A DNA stretch of 64,000 bases from a virus. Its lineage: Duplodnaviria > Heunggongvirae > Uroviricota > Caudoviricetes. This document shows, piece after piece, positions 13,044 to 63,237 of this stretch. The DNA is taken from IMG/VR virus record IMGVR_UViG_2740892229_000011. One strand, 5' to 3'. The translations under genes and the position numbers were made by a program. The notes beneath the pieces were generated by a model. That model did not search any database. It worked only from the letters and a program-made list of their open reading frames with translations, and had not been told where the DNA came from. The number at the start of each line of letters is the position of its first letter. Within the stretch, counting starts at the first letter, position 1.

Positions 13044-13118
13044 GATGGTGTAGCTCAGCGGTAGAGCAGTTGGCTGTTAACCAACTGGTCGGTGGTTCGA
13101 ATCCACCCACCATCGCCA
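13044..13118 (+). tRNA. tRNA-Asn (anticodon GTT)
   Basis: Cloverleaf read by hand: acceptor gatggtg/caccatc, anticodon loop ctGTTaa, T-loop GGTTCGAATCC, 3' CCA encoded; differs from the recalled E. coli tRNA-Asn. Confidence 0.85.
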
Positions 13119-13123
13119 ATTTA

Positions 13124-13210
13124 GGGGAGTTAGTCCGTAGGGGCAGCGGGGTAGACTGTAAATCTACTGTCATTGCGACTCGGGTGGTTCGACTCCATCA
13201 CTCCCCACCA
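13124..13210 (+). tRNA. tRNA-Tyr (anticodon GTA), type II with long variable arm
   Basis: Acceptor ggggagt/actcccc, anticodon stem gtaga/tctac with loop ctGTAaa, long variable arm, T-loop ttcgact, CCA encoded. Confidence 0.7.
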
Positions 13211-13214
13211 AATT

Positions 13215-13290
13215 GCCGGTTTAGCTCAGTTGGTAGAGCGCCTGCCTTGTAAGCAGGATGTCAGCGGTTCGATCCCGTTAACCGGCACCA
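13215..13290 (+). tRNA. tRNA-Thr (anticodon TGT)
   Basis: Acceptor gccggtt/aaccggc, D-arm tagctcagttggtagagc, anticodon loop ctTGTaa, T-loop ttcgatc, CCA encoded; 4-nt spacer from tRNA-Tyr. Confidence 0.8.
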
Positions 13291-13291
13291 A

Positions 13292-13380
13292 CACAACAGG
13301 TAAGAGCATTGGGCGAATCGGCGATACTGACCCACAAGCCCGTAAATCGATAGAGTCAGACCAGTGCTCTTACCGTTGTG
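13292..13380 (+). repeat. Long inverted-repeat hairpin element E2
   Basis: Arms cacaacaggtaagagca / tgctcttaccgttgtg enclosing about 56 nt, directly after tRNA-Thr. Confidence 0.5.
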
Positions 13381-13426
13381 AGGAAGTGCAGCTCTTTGAA
13401 GCAACCAGAAGATAAGCATCTGGCTT

Positions 13427-13510
13427 CACAACACAACGATAAGATCATTACGGTTAATCGTCGTTCATGTGCACAATGACTGGTCGAAAGGTAGTGATCT
13501 TACCGTTGTG
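13427..13510 (+). repeat. Long inverted-repeat hairpin element E3
   Basis: Arms cacaacgataagatca / tgatcttaccgttgtg; the 3' arm is near-identical to that of E2. Confidence 0.5.
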
Positions 13511-13610
13511 ATGAATGCACAGGCTGATGTGCCGCAACTACAGTAGTGCGCGCTTTGCGGGGCTTGCTACAACCCTGTGTCGGAGTTCAGCACCGACCAT
13601 CACAATAGCT

Positions 13611-13697
13611 GGAGAGTAGGGAGCATGGTGCTCAAGCGGTCTTGAAATCCGTCCCATTGTGCAAACGATGATGGTTCGATTCCATTACTCTCCGCCA
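13611..13697 (+). tRNA. tRNA-like element, type II (possible tRNA-Ser, anticodon TGA) with weak anticodon stem
   Basis: Acceptor ggagagt/actctcc, T-arm gatggTTCGATTccatt, CCA encoded, loop cTTGAaa; the anticodon stem is only 4 bp plus a U-U, so function is uncertain. Confidence 0.4.
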
Positions 13698-26883: not shown

Positions 26884-29223
26884 ATGGCAAAAGGAAAATC
26901 CGCACTGGCACTTGCTCTGAAAAAGAAAATCGGTAGCAACGACGAAATTCAGAAAGTAACTCATTGGATTGATACAGGCTTTCCACCGTTAAACAAAGCT
27001 ATTTCTGGTCGTTACGATGGCGGCTTCCCATGTGGTCGTATCGTCGAAGTATTCGGTCCTCCAAGTGCAGGGAAATGTGTTACCGCAGACACCATGCTGC
27101 TGACGGAGCGTGGAATGGTAACAGTGAAAGAGTTGTTTGAGATTGAAGGGTACAAAGCGACATGCACTACTCGCGATGTAGAGCATAACGTTGGACTCAT
27201 CAATGAAAATGGCGTGATAGAGAAGACCTCACACCTGACATGGAACAACCGTCGCAAATTCAAGCGTATTAAGCTGGCATCAGGCGGTTATATCGAGGCT
27301 ACGTTCCGTCACCCAATCCGTGTGGTTGACGACTTAGGTAATGTCGTCTGGCGACATGCTGAAAAAATCAGTGTAGGCGACACGATTCCTTCAATGGTTG
27401 GCACACATCAATTCGGCGATCAGCACCTGGATGCCAATATCGCAAAACTGATGGGCTATTTAATTGCTGACGGATACGTGGCCTCTGAAAATTCAGTGAA
27501 TTTTTCTAACACAGATCCTTTCATCAAGGATGAGTACTACCGCCTCATTTCGCTGGTATCAGACAAGATGCCAGTTACGAGAAAACATAACGGCTCGGAA
27601 GACCATGTGCTGTTTAGCAAAGAGGTGCGTTCGCTGCTTTTTAAAGAATATGGTCTGGAGTATGAGAAAGCTGCTGGCAAGCAGGTTCCGTTGAGTGTGC
27701 GTCGCGCCAATAGCGAGGCTCAAATTGCATTCCTTCGCGGCTACTTTGAGCTGGAATGCCACGTCAATGATGGTCGCTGCATTGAGGTTGTGAGCGCGAG
27801 TGGGCTGCTGCTACAGCAAATTCGCCTCATGCTCCTGAATCTGGGGATTACGTCAACTATCTCTGAAAAACACGTCGCGGGTTATGAAAATACATATTAC
27901 CGGCTGTCATTCAGTGGCTCTAATTACGACCTTTTTCTGTCAACGATTGGTTTCGAATCTCCGGCACGTTTATCAGTGGCAACCAAACGGGACATTGGTT
28001 TTGACCGCACTTACTCAGGCTATGTTCCGCACATCAGCGGCTTAGTGAAATCACTCTACGAGTCGCTCACCAAGACCACCCGTGAAGACTACGCTCTGGT
28101 AGACCACGTTATTGGCCGCGGCGATCGTGTCGGAATAGACAAACTGCGAGAAATCTATGTCTCCTTCATTGGCAGAAAGAATCGTTTTAACGAGCATCTG
28201 TTTGCACAACTGGCAGCGGTAATTGGCTCTAACTTGTTCTACGACGAAGTCGTGGCTATTGAGGAAGGTGAAGCACCAACGTTCGACGTAGCGATGCCGG
28301 AAACACACTCTTTCTGGTCTAACGGGATTATCAGCCACAACACATTCCTTGCAACAGCAGCGATGATCTCCGCTCAAAAACAAGATGGTCTGGCGGTATT
28401 CCTCGATCATGAAAACAGTTTTGACGTTGGCCTGGCTGTAGCCAATGGCCTGAACGCAGATGAGGATGACGGTCAGTGGGTATACAAGCAGCCAGATACC
28501 TTCGAAGACTCTGTAGAGTTGATCGGCACAATACTTAAATTGGTTCGTGATGAAGAGCTTATCCCCGAATCAGCACCTATCTGTATCGTGGCTGACTCAC
28601 TTGCGTCTATGGTTCCGAACTCCAAAGCCGAGAAGTTCGAAAAGATGGCTGAAGGCACTGCCAAAGACAAAGATCAGCTAAACATGAACGACAATACGGC
28701 ACTGGCTCGTGCGACAAGTGCGAACTTCCCTACTCTGGCTTTGTGGGCACGCAAATACAACGCCTGCATCATCTTCTTGAATCAGGTTCGCACAAAAATC
28801 GGTGTAATGTTTGGCGACCCTACTACGTCGCCAGGTGGAGATTCACCGAAGTTCTACGCTTCTGTACGTATCCGTCTTGGTGCATCGGTGATGAAGGATG
28901 GTAAAGAGAAGATCGGCCAGGACGTAGGCGCAGAATGCATCAAAAACAAAGTTGCACCACCGTATGGCAAATGCACCTGGAAATTCTACTTCGATCCTAC
29001 TCGTGGCCTCGACGTTATCGAATCGCTCGTCGAGTACATGCTGGAAGAAGGATACCTGCCAAAGAACGCCAGCGGGCGAGTTGAAATTGGTGACAAGAAA
29101 TACACCAAATCGCAGATCGTCGAGATGTATCGGGAGAAGCCACTGGCTGAAATCATTGCGGCTTTGCAGGCAATCGACGACCGAAGAGCAAAAGACAACC
29201 CCACCGAGTCAGTAGAAGAGTAA
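26884..29223 (+). CDS. RecA-like recombinase interrupted by an intein in the P-loop
   Basis: Extein joins to GPPSAGK|TFLATAAM ... FLNQVRTKIGVMFGDPTTSPGGDSPKFYASVRIRLG, closely matching RecA core motifs; extein about 357 aa. Confidence 0.85.
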   Translation: MAKGKSALALALKKKIGSNDEIQKVTHWIDTGFPPLNKAISGRYDGGFPCGRIVEVFGPPSAGKCVTADTMLLTERGMVTVKELFEIEGYKATCTTRDVEHNVGLINENGVIEKTSHLTWNNRRKFKRIKLASGGYIEATFRHPIRVVDDLGNVVWRHAEKISVGDTIPSMVGTHQFGDQHLDANIAKLMGYLIADGYVASENSVNFSNTDPFIKDEYYRLISLVSDKMPVTRKHNGSEDHVLFSKEVRSLLFKEYGLEYEKAAGKQVPLSVRRANSEAQIAFLRGYFELECHVNDGRCIEVVSASGLLLQQIRLMLLNLGITSTISEKHVAGYENTYYRLSFSGSNYDLFLSTIGFESPARLSVATKRDIGFDRTYSGYVPHISGLVKSLYESLTKTTREDYALVDHVIGRGDRVGIDKLREIYVSFIGRKNRFNEHLFAQLAAVIGSNLFYDEVVAIEEGEAPTFDVAMPETHSFWSNGIISHNTFLATAAMISAQKQDGLAVFLDHENSFDVGLAVANGLNADEDDGQWVYKQPDTFEDSVELIGTILKLVRDEELIPESAPICIVADSLASMVPNSKAEKFEKMAEGTAKDKDQLNMNDNTALARATSANFPTLALWARKYNACIIFLNQVRTKIGVMFGDPTTSPGGDSPKFYASVRIRLGASVMKDGKEKIGQDVGAECIKNKVAPPYGKCTWKFYFDPTRGLDVIESLVEYMLEEGYLPKNASGRVEIGDKKYTKSQIVEMYREKPLAEIIAALQAIDDRRAKDNPTESVEE
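27076..28341 (+). other. Intein (422 aa) with LAGLIDADG homing-endonuclease domain inside the RecA Walker A motif
   Basis: Starts with Cys (CVTADTML), block B TxxH (ATFRHPIRV), LAGLIDADG motifs (LMGYLIADGYV, FLRGYFELECHV), ends SHN followed by Thr +1. Confidence 0.8.
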
Positions 29224-45254: not shown

Positions 45255-45668
45255 ATGGCAAGAGGTATGTATGTCTTATGCGAAATTGAAGGTGTGCTGG
45301 CAAATACCAGTCATCGTAAATCTGTATCTGACGCGGATGCAGGCCAGCTCATTGCCGGTGATGAACTCATTTTCCCCACCAGCCGTATGTTGCGTGGTTT
45401 TGCTCGCTCAGGGGCTGAAGTGGTGCTTATCAGTAGCCGCTCTGAAACTCTTGAAGCGCCCACTAAACGATGGCTGAAAGATTTTGGCGTTGATTACGAC
45501 TGGCTTCATCTCGTACCGAATAGCACCAGTTATGAGAAGCATATTAAACGCACATTAGCGGAGCATAAAGGCGATCTGCTTATCGCTGCGCTGGTGCACG
45601 ATCCTCGACTCCGTGCCGCTTTAGCTGACTCTCATCATAGACCGGTCATCTATGAGGTGAGCAAATGA
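45255..45668 (+). CDS. hypothetical protein (HAD-like fold possible; catalytic Asp motif not evident)
   Basis: Sits between thyA and the DHFR gene; N-terminal CEIEGVL where HAD enzymes have DxDGV. Confidence 0.35.
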   Translation: MARGMYVLCEIEGVLANTSHRKSVSDADAGQLIAGDELIFPTSRMLRGFARSGAEVVLISSRSETLEAPTKRWLKDFGVDYDWLHLVPNSTSYEKHIKRTLAEHKGDLLIAALVHDPRLRAALADSHHRPVIYEVSK

Positions 45669-46141
45669 AGATGATAGCTGCTGTTGGCCGTAACTATGAG
45701 ATCGGCATAGCGAACGAACTGCCCTGGCGTTGTTCTACCGATCTGAAGCTATTTAAGAGACTCACCAAAAACGCCACTGTCGTTATGGGGCGTAAAACGA
45801 TGGAAAGTCTCAAACGCCCTCTTCCAGAGCGTCATAACCTCGTTTTGACGCGCTCTCATGGCTTTGTACCAAATGGATTCTACCCTGCTGGTGTGGATGA
45901 TGTGTTGCGATTACCAGAGCCTGTGTGGGTGATTGGCGGGGAACAAATTTACTCGCTATTCATGCCGCATGTTGAAGAGATTTGGCTCTCCCACATCGGC
46001 GTTGATGTGCCAAACGCCGATGCATTCTTCCCGGCAAGCATGATGCGTAATTTAGGCTTTGTGCCTGTTGAAACAGTTTTTACCCAACGAGCCAGCGAGG
46101 AAGAGCCTGGCTTTTCGCAGATCGTATACAGAAGGTCGTAA
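45665..46141 (+). CDS. Dihydrofolate reductase
   Basis: DHFR signature ELPW...LFKRLTKN...VVMGRKTMESLKRPLPER...VIGGEQIY. Confidence 0.8.
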   Translation: MKMIAAVGRNYEIGIANELPWRCSTDLKLFKRLTKNATVVMGRKTMESLKRPLPERHNLVLTRSHGFVPNGFYPAGVDDVLRLPEPVWVIGGEQIYSLFMPHVEEIWLSHIGVDVPNADAFFPASMMRNLGFVPVETVFTQRASEEEPGFSQIVYRRS

Positions 46142-53533: not shown

Positions 53534-55222
53534 ATGAATACAGCCCTTTCCATCATCGACGATGCCAGCTCAAACACGGCTATCGACTATCGTCAGGAAA
53601 TGAATGTCATCCACGAAATCGTGGCCGAGTGCGAGAAAGAGATCGCCTTCATGTATCAGGTACACGACTTCGTTTATGGCGACGAACGCCACAACATGAT
53701 TAATCGCCTGCTGAGACTAAACCATCGACCAGATGAAGATCGCTCGCGTTTAAATCGAGGTTGGTTGGATAAAGTCGATCTGGAATGGGTGAAACAGAAT
53801 ATTTGGGCCGAGTACTGGAGGAAGGTCACGGACATGACTAACGTTTTGCTGATCATGCCAGCTTCCCGTCGAGATGAGTGGCGCGAGCAGTTTATAGAGG
53901 GCAAACAGGAAGTCATCAAAACTGACAGAACCGGCTACCAGATGAAGGTTAAAGAGTTCGTTGGTGTACCGGAGTTCAAAGCAGAAACGGTCATACCCAC
54001 GATGCTTAATTTGCTGAATGACAGGCACAAATATCTCTCTGAGCGCGTGTATGGCTTGTTTAAGGCGCTGAGTCCTGCGCACAAGACAAATAAGACAAAC
54101 GGTTTCAGCGAGCGTCTGATAATCGCTGACTGCATTTCTGATTTCTGGCGGGACAGCGTTAGCGTGAACTATCGCAAAGAGGACTACATCGACGATCTGC
54201 GTGTCTTGCTTCATTTCTTCGCGCACAAAGAATTTATTACCATCAACCGCACTGCTGAGGTGCTATCAGCTGCGTATCGGGCAAACGACTGCCAGACCGG
54301 TGACTGGATGAACGTCGATGGAAATCTGATGCGCGTGAAGATGTTCAAGAACGGCAACGTTCACTTTGAAATACATCCTGACGTGGCCTGGAAGTTGAAT
54401 GAGGTGCTGGCTTACAGTATGCCTGCTGCAATCCCCGCGCCATGCCGAACTGCGCCAAAAACACGGGCACCAAAGCAGTTCGGGTTAATCCAGAAGACGA
54501 TCTCCATGCCGGTTCGCACTGCGCTTCGTGACGGGCGATTGAGCAAAGACAAAGGCGTATGGTACTTCTCTGATTCAGCTCTCCAGAAGTCGCAGGTGGA
54601 AGAGCTTGAGCGCACACTGAGCTTCATTGGCGGCGTGCAGGAGAAAAAGCACTGGCAGTTCCCGTATGAGATCGGCCATACGCTAAATACGATTGTGGCT
54701 ACCGGATTAATACCGGATACAAAATCACACCAGTTCTACCCTACCCCACGCTTGATTGCTGAGTACGTTGCCAGAGCCACTGAATTGAAGCCTGGTGAGA
54801 AGCTGCTGGAGCCTCAAGCCGGACGTGGGGATCTTCTGGCCTATATTAACGCCGATCTGGAAGATGTTACCTGTATAGAAATCGCACCTCTCTTCGCTGA
54901 TATCCTGCGTGGAAAAGGGTATACGAACACGATTTGCTGCGACTTCATAAAGTGGTCTGAGGACAACGCAGGTTATCAGTTCGACAAAATCGTTATGAAC
55001 CCGCCGTACTCGCTTGGTCGTCATAGAGAGCACACGATGGCTGCGCTGGGGCATCTGAAAGTCGGCGGGCGTCTTGTAGCAGTATTGCCGGGCACTGCAC
55101 CAATACTGGACTGGATGACGATGGATAATTACGTTTATGCCAGAGGGAAGTCGTTTACCAACGAGTTTGAAGACACAGGGATCACAGTCAGCGTATACGT
55201 TTTCAAACGCGTTAAAAGATAG
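53534..55222 (+). CDS. DNA methyltransferase (N6-adenine/N4-cytosine class) with large N-terminal domain of unknown function
   Basis: C-terminal SAM-MTase motifs LEPQAGRGDL (motif I) and IVMNPPYS (motif IV); about 380-aa N-terminal region without recognisable motifs. Confidence 0.65.
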   Translation: MNTALSIIDDASSNTAIDYRQEMNVIHEIVAECEKEIAFMYQVHDFVYGDERHNMINRLLRLNHRPDEDRSRLNRGWLDKVDLEWVKQNIWAEYWRKVTDMTNVLLIMPASRRDEWREQFIEGKQEVIKTDRTGYQMKVKEFVGVPEFKAETVIPTMLNLLNDRHKYLSERVYGLFKALSPAHKTNKTNGFSERLIIADCISDFWRDSVSVNYRKEDYIDDLRVLLHFFAHKEFITINRTAEVLSAAYRANDCQTGDWMNVDGNLMRVKMFKNGNVHFEIHPDVAWKLNEVLAYSMPAAIPAPCRTAPKTRAPKQFGLIQKTISMPVRTALRDGRLSKDKGVWYFSDSALQKSQVEELERTLSFIGGVQEKKHWQFPYEIGHTLNTIVATGLIPDTKSHQFYPTPRLIAEYVARATELKPGEKLLEPQAGRGDLLAYINADLEDVTCIEIAPLFADILRGKGYTNTICCDFIKWSEDNAGYQFDKIVMNPPYSLGRHREHTMAALGHLKVGGRLVAVLPGTAPILDWMTMDNYVYARGKSFTNEFEDTGITVSVYVFKRVKR

Positions 55223-55280: not shown

Positions 55281-55985
55281 ATGAACAACCTCCAGTTAGA
55301 GCATTTTAACGTCACAGGCCATTCTGATTTTCCTTTCAAGTTTACATTGAAAGGTTATGCAGAGGATGCGGTAGGCCAGATCATTATTGATAAAGGCATC
55401 GTTAAGTTTGAGGGGAATTTTGATGAATCCGCGAAAACATTCATAGACTTCGTTGCCAAACGTTGGAGCGAGCAATGGAAAGACCTGGAAAAGCGCGCTA
55501 GTGAGTTTGATCGGTTCATGGATGCAATGGATACAGCAAAAGAGGCTCTTGCTGCCGGTACTCCGTTAGATCTGGAGTCACTTTTCAACGGCGAAGTGGC
55601 CTCTGCGATGTTCGCCACCATGTTCGCGGGTGAGTTCGTCCGCAGCGGTGCCAAAAACTACCTTGAGCTGGATTACAACGTCCCTGCAATTGGCGATTTC
55701 GTCGTTACCATCCAACGCAAAGAAGGTAAGACGCCAGGTGAACGCGTCGCAGAGCTTGAGGCCGTTGTGGATCAGCGTAACGGAGAGTGTGACCGTTTGG
55801 TCAACGAGCTTCATGCACTTCGGGAAGAAAGAATATGTGCGGGTAGCAATACACGTAATGCAGCGGATATCTACTTCCAGTTAGTTGAGGAATGCCAGAT
55901 TCCACCAGGTGGCTCTCTTGTCGATTACGTCAGACATTTAATGGCGGAAGTTAACTCCAGCCATAAAGATGGTGAGGTGCGCTGA
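55281..55985 (+). CDS. hypothetical protein
   Basis: 234-aa ORF with conserved TIR; stop overlaps the next start. Confidence 0.5.
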   Translation: MNNLQLEHFNVTGHSDFPFKFTLKGYAEDAVGQIIIDKGIVKFEGNFDESAKTFIDFVAKRWSEQWKDLEKRASEFDRFMDAMDTAKEALAAGTPLDLESLFNGEVASAMFATMFAGEFVRSGAKNYLELDYNVPAIGDFVVTIQRKEGKTPGERVAELEAVVDQRNGECDRLVNELHALREERICAGSNTRNAADIYFQLVEECQIPPGGSLVDYVRHLMAEVNSSHKDGEVR

Positions 55986-56365: not shown

Positions 56366-56484
56366 ACGCTACAAATCCTTCGGCATGAATAAATAAAGGC
56401 CATAAGTTGTGGCCTTAAATAAATTGTTTTCTACATTTTCTTATTTGTGAAAATAACCACAACTAGAAAACAACGGAGTTAAGA

Positions 56485-57126
56485 ATGTCTAGTATTTCCG
56501 AAGCTCATATGTTCGCCGCTGGCGCTCATGGTGGCGTTGGTCAGAAAAGAAAATATACCGGCGAAGACTACATCAACCACCCGGTTGCTGTCCGAGAGAT
56601 TGTTGCATTGCATGACGGAACCGTGGAGATGCAAATCGCGGCGCTTCTGCATGATGTGGTCGAAGACACCCATGTAACCATAGAGATGGTTCGTGATCAC
56701 TTCGGTGAGCGCGTAGCTGAAATGGTTCAGGCTCTGACCAACATTGCAAGGCCAGAAGACGGCAATCGAATACAGCGTTTCATCATCAATGTCCGGGAGC
56801 TGGAGCAAAATCTCGACATGCAGACGCGCATGATCAAGCTGGCTGACCTGCTCGACAATACCTCTTCTATCGTGAGTCGCGATCCCGAGTTTTCAGCTGT
56901 CTACCTCGCAGAGAAAGAACTGATGCTGGACGTACTCTTTCACGGCAAAGAGATTGGTGCCAACGCTGATGTTGTCGAGTACATGGAGAGGATAGGTATA
57001 GAACACCCGTTGCTATTAAGCGCAATGGCGAAAGTCACTGAAGGTATTGCGCTTCTGAAACCGGTACACATCAAACGTTATGAAAAACACAAATCGCTGA
57101 TCTGGAGCGCGTTGGAGGCTGCATGA
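56485..57126 (+). CDS. HD-domain hydrolase of the RelA/SpoT type (putative small alarmone (p)ppGpp hydrolase)
   Basis: AHGGVGQKRKYTGEDYINHPVAVREIVAL...ALLHDVVEDT, close to the SpoT/RelA hydrolase HD motif; 213 aa with no synthetase domain. Confidence 0.65.
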   Translation: MSSISEAHMFAAGAHGGVGQKRKYTGEDYINHPVAVREIVALHDGTVEMQIAALLHDVVEDTHVTIEMVRDHFGERVAEMVQALTNIARPEDGNRIQRFIINVRELEQNLDMQTRMIKLADLLDNTSSIVSRDPEFSAVYLAEKELMLDVLFHGKEIGANADVVEYMERIGIEHPLLLSAMAKVTEGIALLKPVHIKRYEKHKSLIWSALEAA

Positions 57127-57665
57127 AGGTCGAAAAAATAGATGTTCTTTCCTTTGTGCTGACGGATCTGGAACGCCTCGATCCGGTTCGAGTGATGATT
57201 GAAAACTACGAACCTGGTAAGGGAAGAATCACCATCATCTGCTACGGAAAAGCGTGGACTGCGGCTTGGTTTGCTATGGGCGGTGATGATGTGCAGACGT
57301 TCATTAAGCGGGTCAGCAACGAGTATCTAATCGGCTATTTCGACTCTCAACTGCGAAGCACGGTCGACGATGACAACGATGCAAATCTGCTTTTCGTGAA
57401 GTCAGAAATCATAAAGTTACGAAGAGAGAGAGAAATCGACGCCGTACTGGCTCGTGAAATGTGGGACGAGGCGGAAAACGCCGATGACGTAAAAGAAAGC
57501 TGCTGTTGTTTCGGCGTCGGTAACAAACTGCTGAATCTCTTTGGTGATGATCCGTGGTATGCCGACTGGCCAACGGTACCAAACCCGAAATACCAGTATC
57601 TGGAACGCATTGTGAACGCGGTACGTGAAGGGCTGAAAGAGTTAGATAAGTTAGAGGCATCGTAA
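57123..57665 (+). CDS. hypothetical protein
   Basis: 180-aa ORF; ATGA overlap with the upstream gene. Confidence 0.45.
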   Translation: MKVEKIDVLSFVLTDLERLDPVRVMIENYEPGKGRITIICYGKAWTAAWFAMGGDDVQTFIKRVSNEYLIGYFDSQLRSTVDDDNDANLLFVKSEIIKLRREREIDAVLAREMWDEAENADDVKESCCCFGVGNKLLNLFGDDPWYADWPTVPNPKYQYLERIVNAVREGLKELDKLEAS

Positions 57666-58165
57666 TGAGAGAGAAAATCAAGAACCCGGTCGTCGTATTG
57701 TATAAACGGGAAACCAGCGATTCTTATGCGGTATCCATCACTGATGGAAGCCAGAACATGCACGATGGTCTGCTAATGGCCTCCGTATCTCCTGATGATT
57801 CTGACTACCCTTTCGCCACTTTCGCTATGGTTGGTTACTACATGGCTGCCGAAATTGAGAAGTTGCGAGCGCAGAGAGACGCATTAGCGGCGGAGAATGC
57901 AGCCCTGAAAGAATCTGAGCGAGCATTCGATGCGATGTGTGCCGAGGAACACGGAGATAATTGGGTTAGCGAATTAACGGAGACTCCAGCCACCGATGCT
58001 TTTCTGGCTGAAGTACGTGCGCAGGGCGTGGATATGGCTCGTAACGCGATGATTGATTTTGTTGATGGTGAAGTTGGGCCAAACAAGAACGTTCCGGGGC
58101 TGATTAGAGGCGCAGAGATATGCGTAAGTATTGCTGAACAGCTTCGTAAAGGAGTCATCCAGTGA
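57665..58165 (+). CDS. hypothetical protein
   Basis: 166-aa ORF; overlapping start/stop. Confidence 0.45.
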   Translation: MREKIKNPVVVLYKRETSDSYAVSITDGSQNMHDGLLMASVSPDDSDYPFATFAMVGYYMAAEIEKLRAQRDALAAENAALKESERAFDAMCAEEHGDNWVSELTETPATDAFLAEVRAQGVDMARNAMIDFVDGEVGPNKNVPGLIRGAEICVSIAEQLRKGVIQ

Positions 58166-62136: not shown

Positions 62137-63237
62137 TCACACTGCGCGGAATGCGATTTCGCCAGGTATTACTTCACCTTGCCAATACATTTGGGCAGCA
62201 ACGCGATCTGCGAGGTCACGATAAATAGCCGTAAATTCGCTATCTGGACGACTAATAACGGTTGGTGTTCCGTTATCCAGATCTTCACGAAGAGAGATAT
62301 GAAGTGGCATTTGGCCTAACAACTGCGTGTTGTATTTCTCGGCCAGTTTCTGTGCGCCACCGGTGCCAAAAATTGGCTCGTGATGACCGCAGTTACTGCA
62401 AATATGCACACTCATGTTTTCGACGATACCTAGTACCGGCACTTCGACTTTTTCGAACATCACAATGCCTTTCTTCGCATCGATCAGCGCGATGTCTTGC
62501 GGCGTAGTTACCACAACCGCACCAGTTACAGGAATGTTCTGCGCCAGCGTCAACTGAATATCACCAGTGCCCGGCGGCATATCGAGAACGAGATAGTCCA
62601 GATCAGGCCATAGAGTTTCCTGCAACATCTGCATCAGCGCCTTGCTGGCCATCGGTCCACGCCACACCATTGCATTGTCGTCGGTGACCAGATAACCAAT
62701 AGAGTTGGTTGCCAGGCCATGAGACATGATAGGTGCCATGTGAGTACCGTCAGGTGAGGTTGGACGTTGGTTTTCCGCGCCCAGCATGGTTGGAATTGAT
62801 GGACCATAGATATCGGCATCCAAAATACCAACTTTCGCACCTTCAGCAGCCAAAGCCAGTGCCAAGTTTACTGCTGTGGACGATTTGCCTACACCGCCCT
62901 TGCCTGAGCTTACGGCGATAATATTCTTAACACCATTAATGCCTGGTTGGTTTTTGACGCGCTTAAGCGTGGCAATGTTGTACGACAGCTTCCAGTCAAT
63001 AGCCTTTGCGCCAGTGATACGGAGCAGATCACCACTACATTGCTCTTTCAGGTCTTCAAAAGGCTTATTCCACACGAAAGGCATGATTAGTTCGACATGC
63101 AGTGTGTCATCCATCAACGCAACATGGTGTAACGCTTTAAGCGTAGTCAGGTTGTGTTTCAGGGTTGGGTGCTGAAAATTAGCCAGCGTACCGGCTACCA
63201 TTGCTCTCAGGGCATCCGGCGATTTGGACTCGCTCAT
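62137..63237 (-). CDS. mrp: Fe-S cluster carrier ATPase Mrp/ApbC
   Basis: Full-length near-identity to recalled E. coli Mrp (P-loop GKGGVGKSST, CSNCGH motif). Confidence 0.95.
   Translation of the reverse strand: MSESKSPDALRAMVAGTLANFQHPTLKHNLTTLKALHHVALMDDTLHVELIMPFVWNKPFEDLKEQCSGDLLRITGAKAIDWKLSYNIATLKRVKNQPGINGVKNIIAVSSGKGGVGKSSTAVNLALALAAEGAKVGILDADIYGPSIPTMLGAENQRPTSPDGTHMAPIMSHGLATNSIGYLVTDDNAMVWRGPMASKALMQMLQETLWPDLDYLVLDMPPGTGDIQLTLAQNIPVTGAVVVTTPQDIALIDAKKGIVMFEKVEVPVLGIVENMSVHICSNCGHHEPIFGTGGAQKLAEKYNTQLLGQMPLHISLREDLDNGTPTVISRPDSEFTAIYRDLADRVAAQMYWQGEVIPGEIAFRAV

Follow-up and report, generated by a model that had tools for sequence, protein, structure and literature searches.

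A syntenic orthologue of the phage SSU5 small alarmone hydrolase in a phage-plasmid of Escherichia coli

The window analyzed here, a stretch of viral DNA of 64,000 nucleotides, encodes at 56485..57126 (+ strand, ATG start, TGA stop) a 213-aa protein that is the syntenic orthologue of SSU5_099 (YP_006906731.1) of Salmonella phage SSU5; sequence identity, flanking genes and element family all agree. The two proteins align without gaps over their full length, with 185 of 213 residues identical (87%). A tblastn search of phage SSU5 returned a single RSH-hydrolase homologue, and SSU5_099 must therefore be the protein named 'Salmonella phage SSU5 SAH (PaSpo)' by Jimmy et al. (2020), who placed this small alarmone hydrolase (SAH) in the PaSpo subfamily (PNAS; PMC7229694). 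The window protein would inherit its membership of the subfamily from the SSU5 protein, by virtue of the 87% identity and the synteny. By analogy with PaSpo-SSU5, the window gene is likely, at a probability of about 0.8, to encode a stand-alone SAH of the PaSpo type that can neutralize toxic small alarmone synthetases (toxSAS).

Since the SSU5 protein, 87% identical to the one described here, has already been tested and serves routinely in the laboratory, the finding as such is already known, and both the protein family and the idea of a counter-defence function were published between 2020 and 2022. The details that are new here are a cassette indel, an occurrence on plasmids only, occasional deletion or truncation, and the lack of a toxSAS partner. 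They place the experimentally used SSU5 enzyme in a mobile two-gene cassette; the SSU5/pHCM2-like phage-plasmids among which it circulates are clinically common and come from E. coli, Salmonella (S. Typhi pHCM2 included), Enterobacter and Citrobacter. The residual interest lies in the polymorphism of this cassette, which offers a natural presence/absence system for the role of the SAH, and in a putative conflict between SSU5-like phage-plasmids bearing the SAH and P1-like ones bearing CapRel.

The hydrolase and its predicted active site

A preliminary description of this DNA had proposed a RelA/SpoT-type HD hydrolase without a synthetase domain, and the sequence searches bear this out, the similarity being much too strong for chance. 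The 213-aa protein scores 67.8 bits with Pfam HD_4, for which the cutoff is 27.2 (E=1.1e-18), and is matched by Pfam HD with E=6e-6; it contains no domains other than these two, which is the domain content of a single-domain SAH. From TIGR00691 (spoT_relA) only positions 1-123, the hydrolase part, are matched (E=1.4e-24); at 86 bits the score stays below the cutoff of 499, and 123 of the 687 profile positions are covered. Profile searches found no synthetase domain in the protein, nor in the ORFs on either side, and as both the synthetase and the C-terminal regulatory domains are absent, the protein is not a long bifunctional RSH such as SpoT or Rel. The family phrog_990, annotated as 'metal-dependent phosphohydrolase', matches with E=2.9e-55. 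A sequence search of the PDB gave RSH hydrolases only, small alarmone hydrolases included, with the hydrolase domains of SpoT, Rel and MESH1 at 1e-13 to 1e-9 and the best matches to SpoT of A. baumannii (7qps, 1.7e-13) and Rel of M. tuberculosis (5xnx, 5e-13). The hydrolase domains of SpoT and Rel, which are thus the best sequence matches, have the same HD motifs as the window SAH, whereas the synthetase, TGS and ACT domains of these long enzymes are absent from its 213 residues. The further suggestion of a small alarmone hydrolase is supported by the single domain and by the 87% identical SSU5 orthologue, which neutralizes RelA/SpoT-type toxins in vivo.

The HD signature quoted in that description, including ALLHDVVEDT, is present in the protein, residues 14-42 reading AHGGVGQKRKYTGEDYINHPVAVREIVAL and residues 53-62 ALLHDVVEDT. 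We took the residue correspondence to human MESH1 from the HMMER alignment. The codons from R22 to H32 (QKRKYTGEDYINH; 56548..56580, +) align to R24, K25 and H35 of MESH1 (3nr1), and this segment is predicted to provide the substrate-phosphate-binding Arg/Lys and the first metal-ligand His. The codons of H56-D57-V-V-E60-D61 (56650..56667, +) align to H61, D62, E65 and D66 of MESH1 as well as to SpoT and Rel; H56-D57 would be the HD metal ligands and E60-D61 the ED catalytic pair. Further downstream, D121 to N125 in the motif KLADLLDN (56845..56859, +) align to D122 and N126 of MESH1, with D121 as the predicted last metal-ligand Asp and N125 as the conserved Asn. In MESH1 the aligned residues are reportedly, from work by Sun et al. 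in 2010, metal ligands and catalytic residues. The catalytic set (HD1, R22/K23; HD2, H32; HD3, H56-D57; HD4, E60-D61; HD6, D121...N125) is complete in the window protein. In alignments of 29-32 homologues, with identities down to 41%, residues R22, Y24, T25, Y29, H32, H56, E60, D61, K118, D121 and N125 do not vary, and at least 90% of the sequences keep D57.

The AlphaFold2 model of the protein (pLDDT 96.3, pTM 0.92) is all-helical and points to an RSH hydrolase fold. All 40 matches with E<=1e-3 that Foldseek returned from the PDB are RSH hydrolases or close relatives; the best are MESH1 (9chy, 3nr1), Drosophila Mesh1, T. thermophilus Rel, PaSAH of P. aeruginosa, RelH of C. glutamicum, SpoT, lmo0812 and Aph1, a (p)ppApp hydrolase, and the SAH of Leptospira also belongs to the set. 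The bacterial stand-alone SAHs PaSAH (6yvc), C. glutamicum RelH (7qod) and B. caccae Aph1 (7smg) consist of a single domain, like the window SAH, and resemble it in fold (TM-scores of 0.73-0.77, normalized to the target), but their identity to it is only 20-27%, and their genes are chromosomal, with housekeeping or immunity functions, whereas the window SAH is carried by a mobile element. PaSAH, RelH and Aph1 are reported to hydrolyze (p)ppGpp and/or (p)ppApp. Compared with homologues of ~175 aa, the SSU5 clade has an insertion at ~156-172 and an extra C-terminal helix at 193-212, and both are also lacking in the metazoan MESH1, which is ~28% identical to the window SAH.

Between PaSpo-SSU5 and the window SAH the catalytic residues are all identical, and 28 amino-acid substitutions separate the two proteins. 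The nonsynonymous changes relative to SSU5 are distributed unevenly, with 9 in the core and 21 in the C-terminal part, mostly after residue 140. The corresponding dN/dS values are 0.20 overall, 0.10 for the catalytic core and 0.32 for the C-terminal part, and the gene is under purifying selection.

Single-domain hydrolases of this kind have no synthetase domain, yet in public records they frequently bear wrong names such as 'GTP pyrophosphokinase' or 'bifunctional (p)ppGpp synthetase/hydrolase'; the Klebsiella homologues P0005 and P0061 and gene 014 of Rhizobium phage V1VFA-S are examples.

Genomic setting and the two-gene cassette

In the SAH region the window matches the circular plasmid unnamed3 of E. 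coli 2013C-4991 (NZ_CP027358.1, 110001 bp) with 100% identity and pECOH89 with 99.5%; for Salmonella phage SSU5 the identity is ~86% over the common part, which makes up 43% of the 4-kb query. The identical plasmid carries capsid, terminase and tail genes along with RepB, ParB, DnaE, primase, NrdAB, ThyA, four tRNAs and MetRS, and the replication and nucleotide genes of the element also include a helicase and DHFR. The presence of phage structural genes together with RepB and ParB on a plasmid identifies an SSU5/pHCM2-type phage-plasmid of E. coli, and the gene had therefore been rightly described as element-encoded. In the window, the tRNA cluster (Asn-GTT, Tyr-GTA, Thr-TGT, Ser-TGA) is located at 13044-13697 (+), ApbC at 62137-63237 (-), and MetRS extends from ~63395 to the window end. 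The replication module contains an annotated LAGLIDADG homing endonuclease of 779 aa (26884-29223, +), and the phage-type DHFR (45665-46141, +) bears the NCBI label of trimethoprim-resistant DfrA51.

The organization of the PaSpo-SSU5 locus is the same as here, with a DUF4942 methyltransferase, two small ORFs, the SAH and an overlapping ORF of the phiTE_072 family, except that the SSU5 locus has an additional Eaa gene upstream, unlike the window. The DUF4942 protein (562 aa; 53534-55222, +; phrog_6263) has a C-terminal DNA methyltransferase region, with PADLOC matches to mad2 and type II MTase models at residues 394-523, and is probably an anti-restriction methylase. This methyltransferase adjoins the SAH in all SSU5-like elements examined, and the SAH lies within an accessory region beside DNA methyltransferases. 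PADLOC reported nothing for the SAH or its small-ORF neighbors, its matches being limited to the methyltransferase models on the DUF4942 protein. On a 110-kb Logan contig (L017) that encodes a 41% identical SAH (P0097), a Tad2-like anti-Thoeris gene (563-874; PF11195, E=2.6e-8) and a TerB gene are found ~2 kb upstream of the SAH, which itself lies upstream of the DUF4942 methyltransferase. These surroundings are consistent with an anti-defence or accessory region.

The SAHs ATfaRel (C. marina, a type IV antitoxin) and MESH1 have the single-domain RSH hydrolase fold and the motifs of the window SAH, and both neutralize toxSAS. ATfaRel shares an operon with its toxSAS, whereas the window SAH is an orphan. 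A toxSAS toxin-antitoxin operon of the ATfaRel type was considered and rejected, as the flanking ORFs contain no RelA_SpoT domain and PADLOC was negative. In the identical plasmid, no RelA/SpoT synthetase is annotated within positions 1-100000 of 110001.

A Shine-Dalgarno sequence, GGAG (56474..56477, +), can be read 7 nt 5' of the SAH start codon. The 119-nt spacer 5' of the gene includes a G+C-rich, terminator-like hairpin (AAGGCCA-loop-TGGCCTT, 56396..56416), seen in both the scan and the sequence and assigned by the scan to the - strand. The hairpin is situated outside the indel cassette described below and is kept in the cassette-less phage PhiR41_1. The promoter scan detected no sigma-70-like promoter on the + strand near the SAH gene, the upstream hairpin being all that it returned, and a dedicated SAH promoter was rejected on these grounds.

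The ATG of the downstream ORF (180 aa; 57123..57665, +), a member of Phage_phiTE_072 (PF26211), overlaps the SAH stop codon (ATGA). Its AlphaFold2 model (pLDDT 77) had no significant structure match in the PDB, and its PDB sequence search gave only noise. We considered this ORF as an obligate partner of the SAH and rejected it, because the family occurs without the SAH and the SAH without the family. Many chromosomal lambdoid prophages carry a Phage_phiTE_072 ORF and lack an SAH; conversely, Klebsiella-type SSU5-like elements have no Phage_phiTE_072 ORF beside the SAH, and the genes 3' of the SAH in Rhizobium phage V1VFA-S and Escherichia phage PJ16 are unrelated to the downstream ORF of the window.

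Comparison with PhiR41_1 (PV340561.1), an SSU5-like phage of E. coli, cleanly delimits a two-gene indel cassette of ~1.2 kb (56458..57664, +) that comprises the ribosome-binding site, the SAH and the overlapping ORF. Homology to PhiR41_1 runs from 55000 to ~56457 and starts again from 57665; at the cassette site (L008 2958-3004) PhiR41_1 has ~47 bp of unrelated sequence, directly followed by an Eae-like gene homologous to window 57665-58165. In phage Cyrano the genes are arranged in the same way, again with the SAH absent, and it is from the homology gap and this gene order together that the cassette was defined. The match to phrog_3451 (287 positions) is split in the window: positions 13-101 match the N-terminus of ORF 55281-55985, and positions 105-282 match the whole ORF 57123-57665. 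Some phages thus appear to have one fused gene, and the sequence suggests that the segment between ORFs 55281 and 57123, including the SAH, was inserted into a fused gene or recombined out of it.

Carriers, loss and variant alleles

PaSpo-SSU5 and the window SAH are carried by one common family of phage-plasmids of ~105-115 kb. Full-length SAH copies, defined by a coverage of at least 80%, were found on 122 plasmids, which among the matches listed are mostly 105-115 kb in size, and copies in many plasmids are 98-100% identical. The 144 matching plasmid records include 49 from Escherichia, 41 from Enterobacter, 39 from Salmonella (S. Typhi pHCM2 among them) and 14 from Citrobacter, and 143 of the 144 are classed as non-mobilizable. 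Of 5426 complete E. coli genomes, 36 carry the SAH, invariably on a plasmid; no chromosomal copy was seen.

The gene is dispensable: it is missing in PhiR41_1 and Cyrano, deleted in pSLy3 and damaged in some plasmids. In pSLy3 (NZ_CP015915.1; L003 3501-3680), the SAH gene is cut short after nt 43 and gives way to an IS1 transposase remnant, beyond which lies apbC; the whole stretch between is deleted. The alleles P0011 and P0012 are chimeric and lack the active site; of these two inactivated chimeras, one has an AAA P-loop N-terminus joined at ~residue 59, and the other starts like the ORF-55281 homologue, whose N-terminus is joined at ~residue 75. In a further inactivated allele, P0009, HG replaces HD.

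What appears to be a different family of plasmids carries CapRel-SJ46, the product of J46_0058 of phage SJ46 (L020 6389-7510, -). Near-identical genes are present in 14 of the 5426 complete E. coli genomes, on plasmids only (H131-H142 among the carriers). These plasmids are mostly ~93-110 kb and presumably P1-like, as is SJ46 itself. Their carriage in E. coli places a toxSAS, a known target of the SAH family, in a rival phage-plasmid family of the same host species.

Activity of PaSpo-SSU5 and candidate roles

In the original study, PaSpo-SSU5 neutralized all five of the toxic small alarmone synthetases tested, namely CapRel, PhRel2, FaRel2, PhRel and FaRel (PMC7229694). It has since served as a helper to detoxify PhRel2 (bioRxiv 2021.04.30.441581), and it detoxified the anti-phage effector CapRel-SJ46 (PMC9712102) as well as FaRel2 in E. 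coli, where leaky expression was enough (PMC11559606). FaRel makes (pp)pApp, and FaRel2, PhRel, PhRel2 and CapRel pyrophosphorylate tRNA-CCA. The removal of this tRNA modification by PaSpo-SSU5 is stated by citation in PMC11559606. In vitro, MESH1 and ATfaRel reversed the pyrophosphorylation of the tRNA 3'-CCA and restored aminoacylation after FaRel2 (bioRxiv 2021.04.30.441581); for PaSpo-SSU5 itself we found no in vitro enzymology in the literature. By analogy, pyrophosphorylated tRNA is probably a relevant substrate of the window SAH, besides (pp)pApp and (p)ppGpp.

We propose that the SAH would act as a metal-dependent 3'-pyrophosphohydrolase, with Mn2+ by analogy with MESH1 and Rel, stripping pyrophosphorylated tRNA as well as (pp)pApp or (p)ppGpp of the 3'-pyrophosphate. 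The phage-plasmid could thereby survive or replicate in cells in which abortive-infection defences of the toxSAS type, such as CapRel, are firing; a blunted accumulation of (p)ppGpp would be a secondary effect. That such counter-defence is the natural role of the window SAH we regard as an evenly balanced proposition. The discussion of the 2020 study raised the idea that incoming phages may bypass toxSAS defence through encoded alarmone hydrolases (PMC7229694), and in the literature from 2022 on we found no phage SAH proven to be anti-defence during infection. To our knowledge, phage SAHs are the only enzymes that undo toxSAS damage, be it (pp)pApp or pyrophosphorylated tRNA, and for this reason they are candidate broad-spectrum anti-defence proteins.

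A more specific form of the counter-defence proposal, which we put forward tentatively and think less probable, is that the cassette serves as a weapon between phage-plasmid families, the SAH of SSU5-like elements erasing the product of CapRel-SJ46 from P1-like ones. If so, it would depend on the presence or absence of the cassette whether CapRel-bearing cells are open to infection by an SSU5-like element or to its residence beside CapRel, and the SAH would be a true enzymatic anti-defence that undoes the damage done by the effector and does not block the sensor.

Alternatively, the main role could be suppression of the stringent response, with hydrolysis of host (p)ppGpp keeping translation, transcription and replication at a high level in lytic growth or plasmid maintenance of the 110-kb element, and neutralization of toxSAS being a by-product of promiscuity. 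Like counter-defence, this idea has been published before. The motifs of the window SAH are those of the (p)ppGpp hydrolases SpoT, Rel and MESH1, and phage infection has been tied to alarmone accumulation (discussion in PMC7229694). The element is moreover rich in replication and nucleotide genes (DnaE, primase, helicase, NrdAB, ThyA, DHFR), and many large lytic and jumbo phages encode SAH homologues, phiKZ and the jumbo phages of Erwinia and Klebsiella among them. However, the phenotypes reported for PaSpo-SSU5 are those of toxSAS neutralization only, neither ppGpp hydrolysis nor a measurement of cellular ppGpp was found for it in the literature, and close phages are viable without the cassette, which is not needed for replication as such. 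The explanation is plausible and compatible with counter-defence, but as an account of the main role it is rather doubtful.

It is less probable still, and on the whole unlikely, that the SAH provides immunity by lysogenic conversion, shielding the carrier from the (p)ppApp toxins of competitors such as Tas1-type T6SS effectors or exported alarmone synthetases. An immunity role of that kind has been proposed for the P. aeruginosa SAH and Aph1. It would suit an element that is kept as a plasmid in gut Enterobacteriaceae, the orthologue neutralizes the (pp)pApp producer FaRel, and PaSAH (6yvc) and the (p)ppApp hydrolase 7smg are among the structural neighbors. Against this, PaSAH and Aph1 resemble the window SAH less closely than MESH1 and SpoT do, and the gene is part of a co-directional early/accessory gene array and is not located beside a repressor-independent moron promoter.

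A metabolic role on a non-alarmone 3'-phosphorylated metabolite (NADPH or PAPS), as for human MESH1, appears very improbable. The best structural matches are indeed MESH1 with PAPS (9chy) and with NADPH (5vxa), and promiscuity of SAHs is documented (PMC9765508), but removal of the 3'-pyrophosphate accounts for the tested PaSpo phenotypes. Truncated or chimeric, HD-to-HG and whole-gene-deletion alleles in other plasmids and elements might suggest that the window SAH is itself a decaying, non-functional remnant, which its full length, intact catalytic residues, good ribosome-binding site, dN/dS of 0.20 and the many plasmids with 98-100% identical copies make hardly credible.

As for a possible neutralization of toxSAS by the phage-plasmid, one further gene of the element deserves mention. 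FaRel2 targets tRNA-Gly and tRNA-Thr, and phage tRNAs evade tRNA-targeting defences (PMC11559606); the tRNA-Thr of the element may be relevant to toxSAS that target tRNA.
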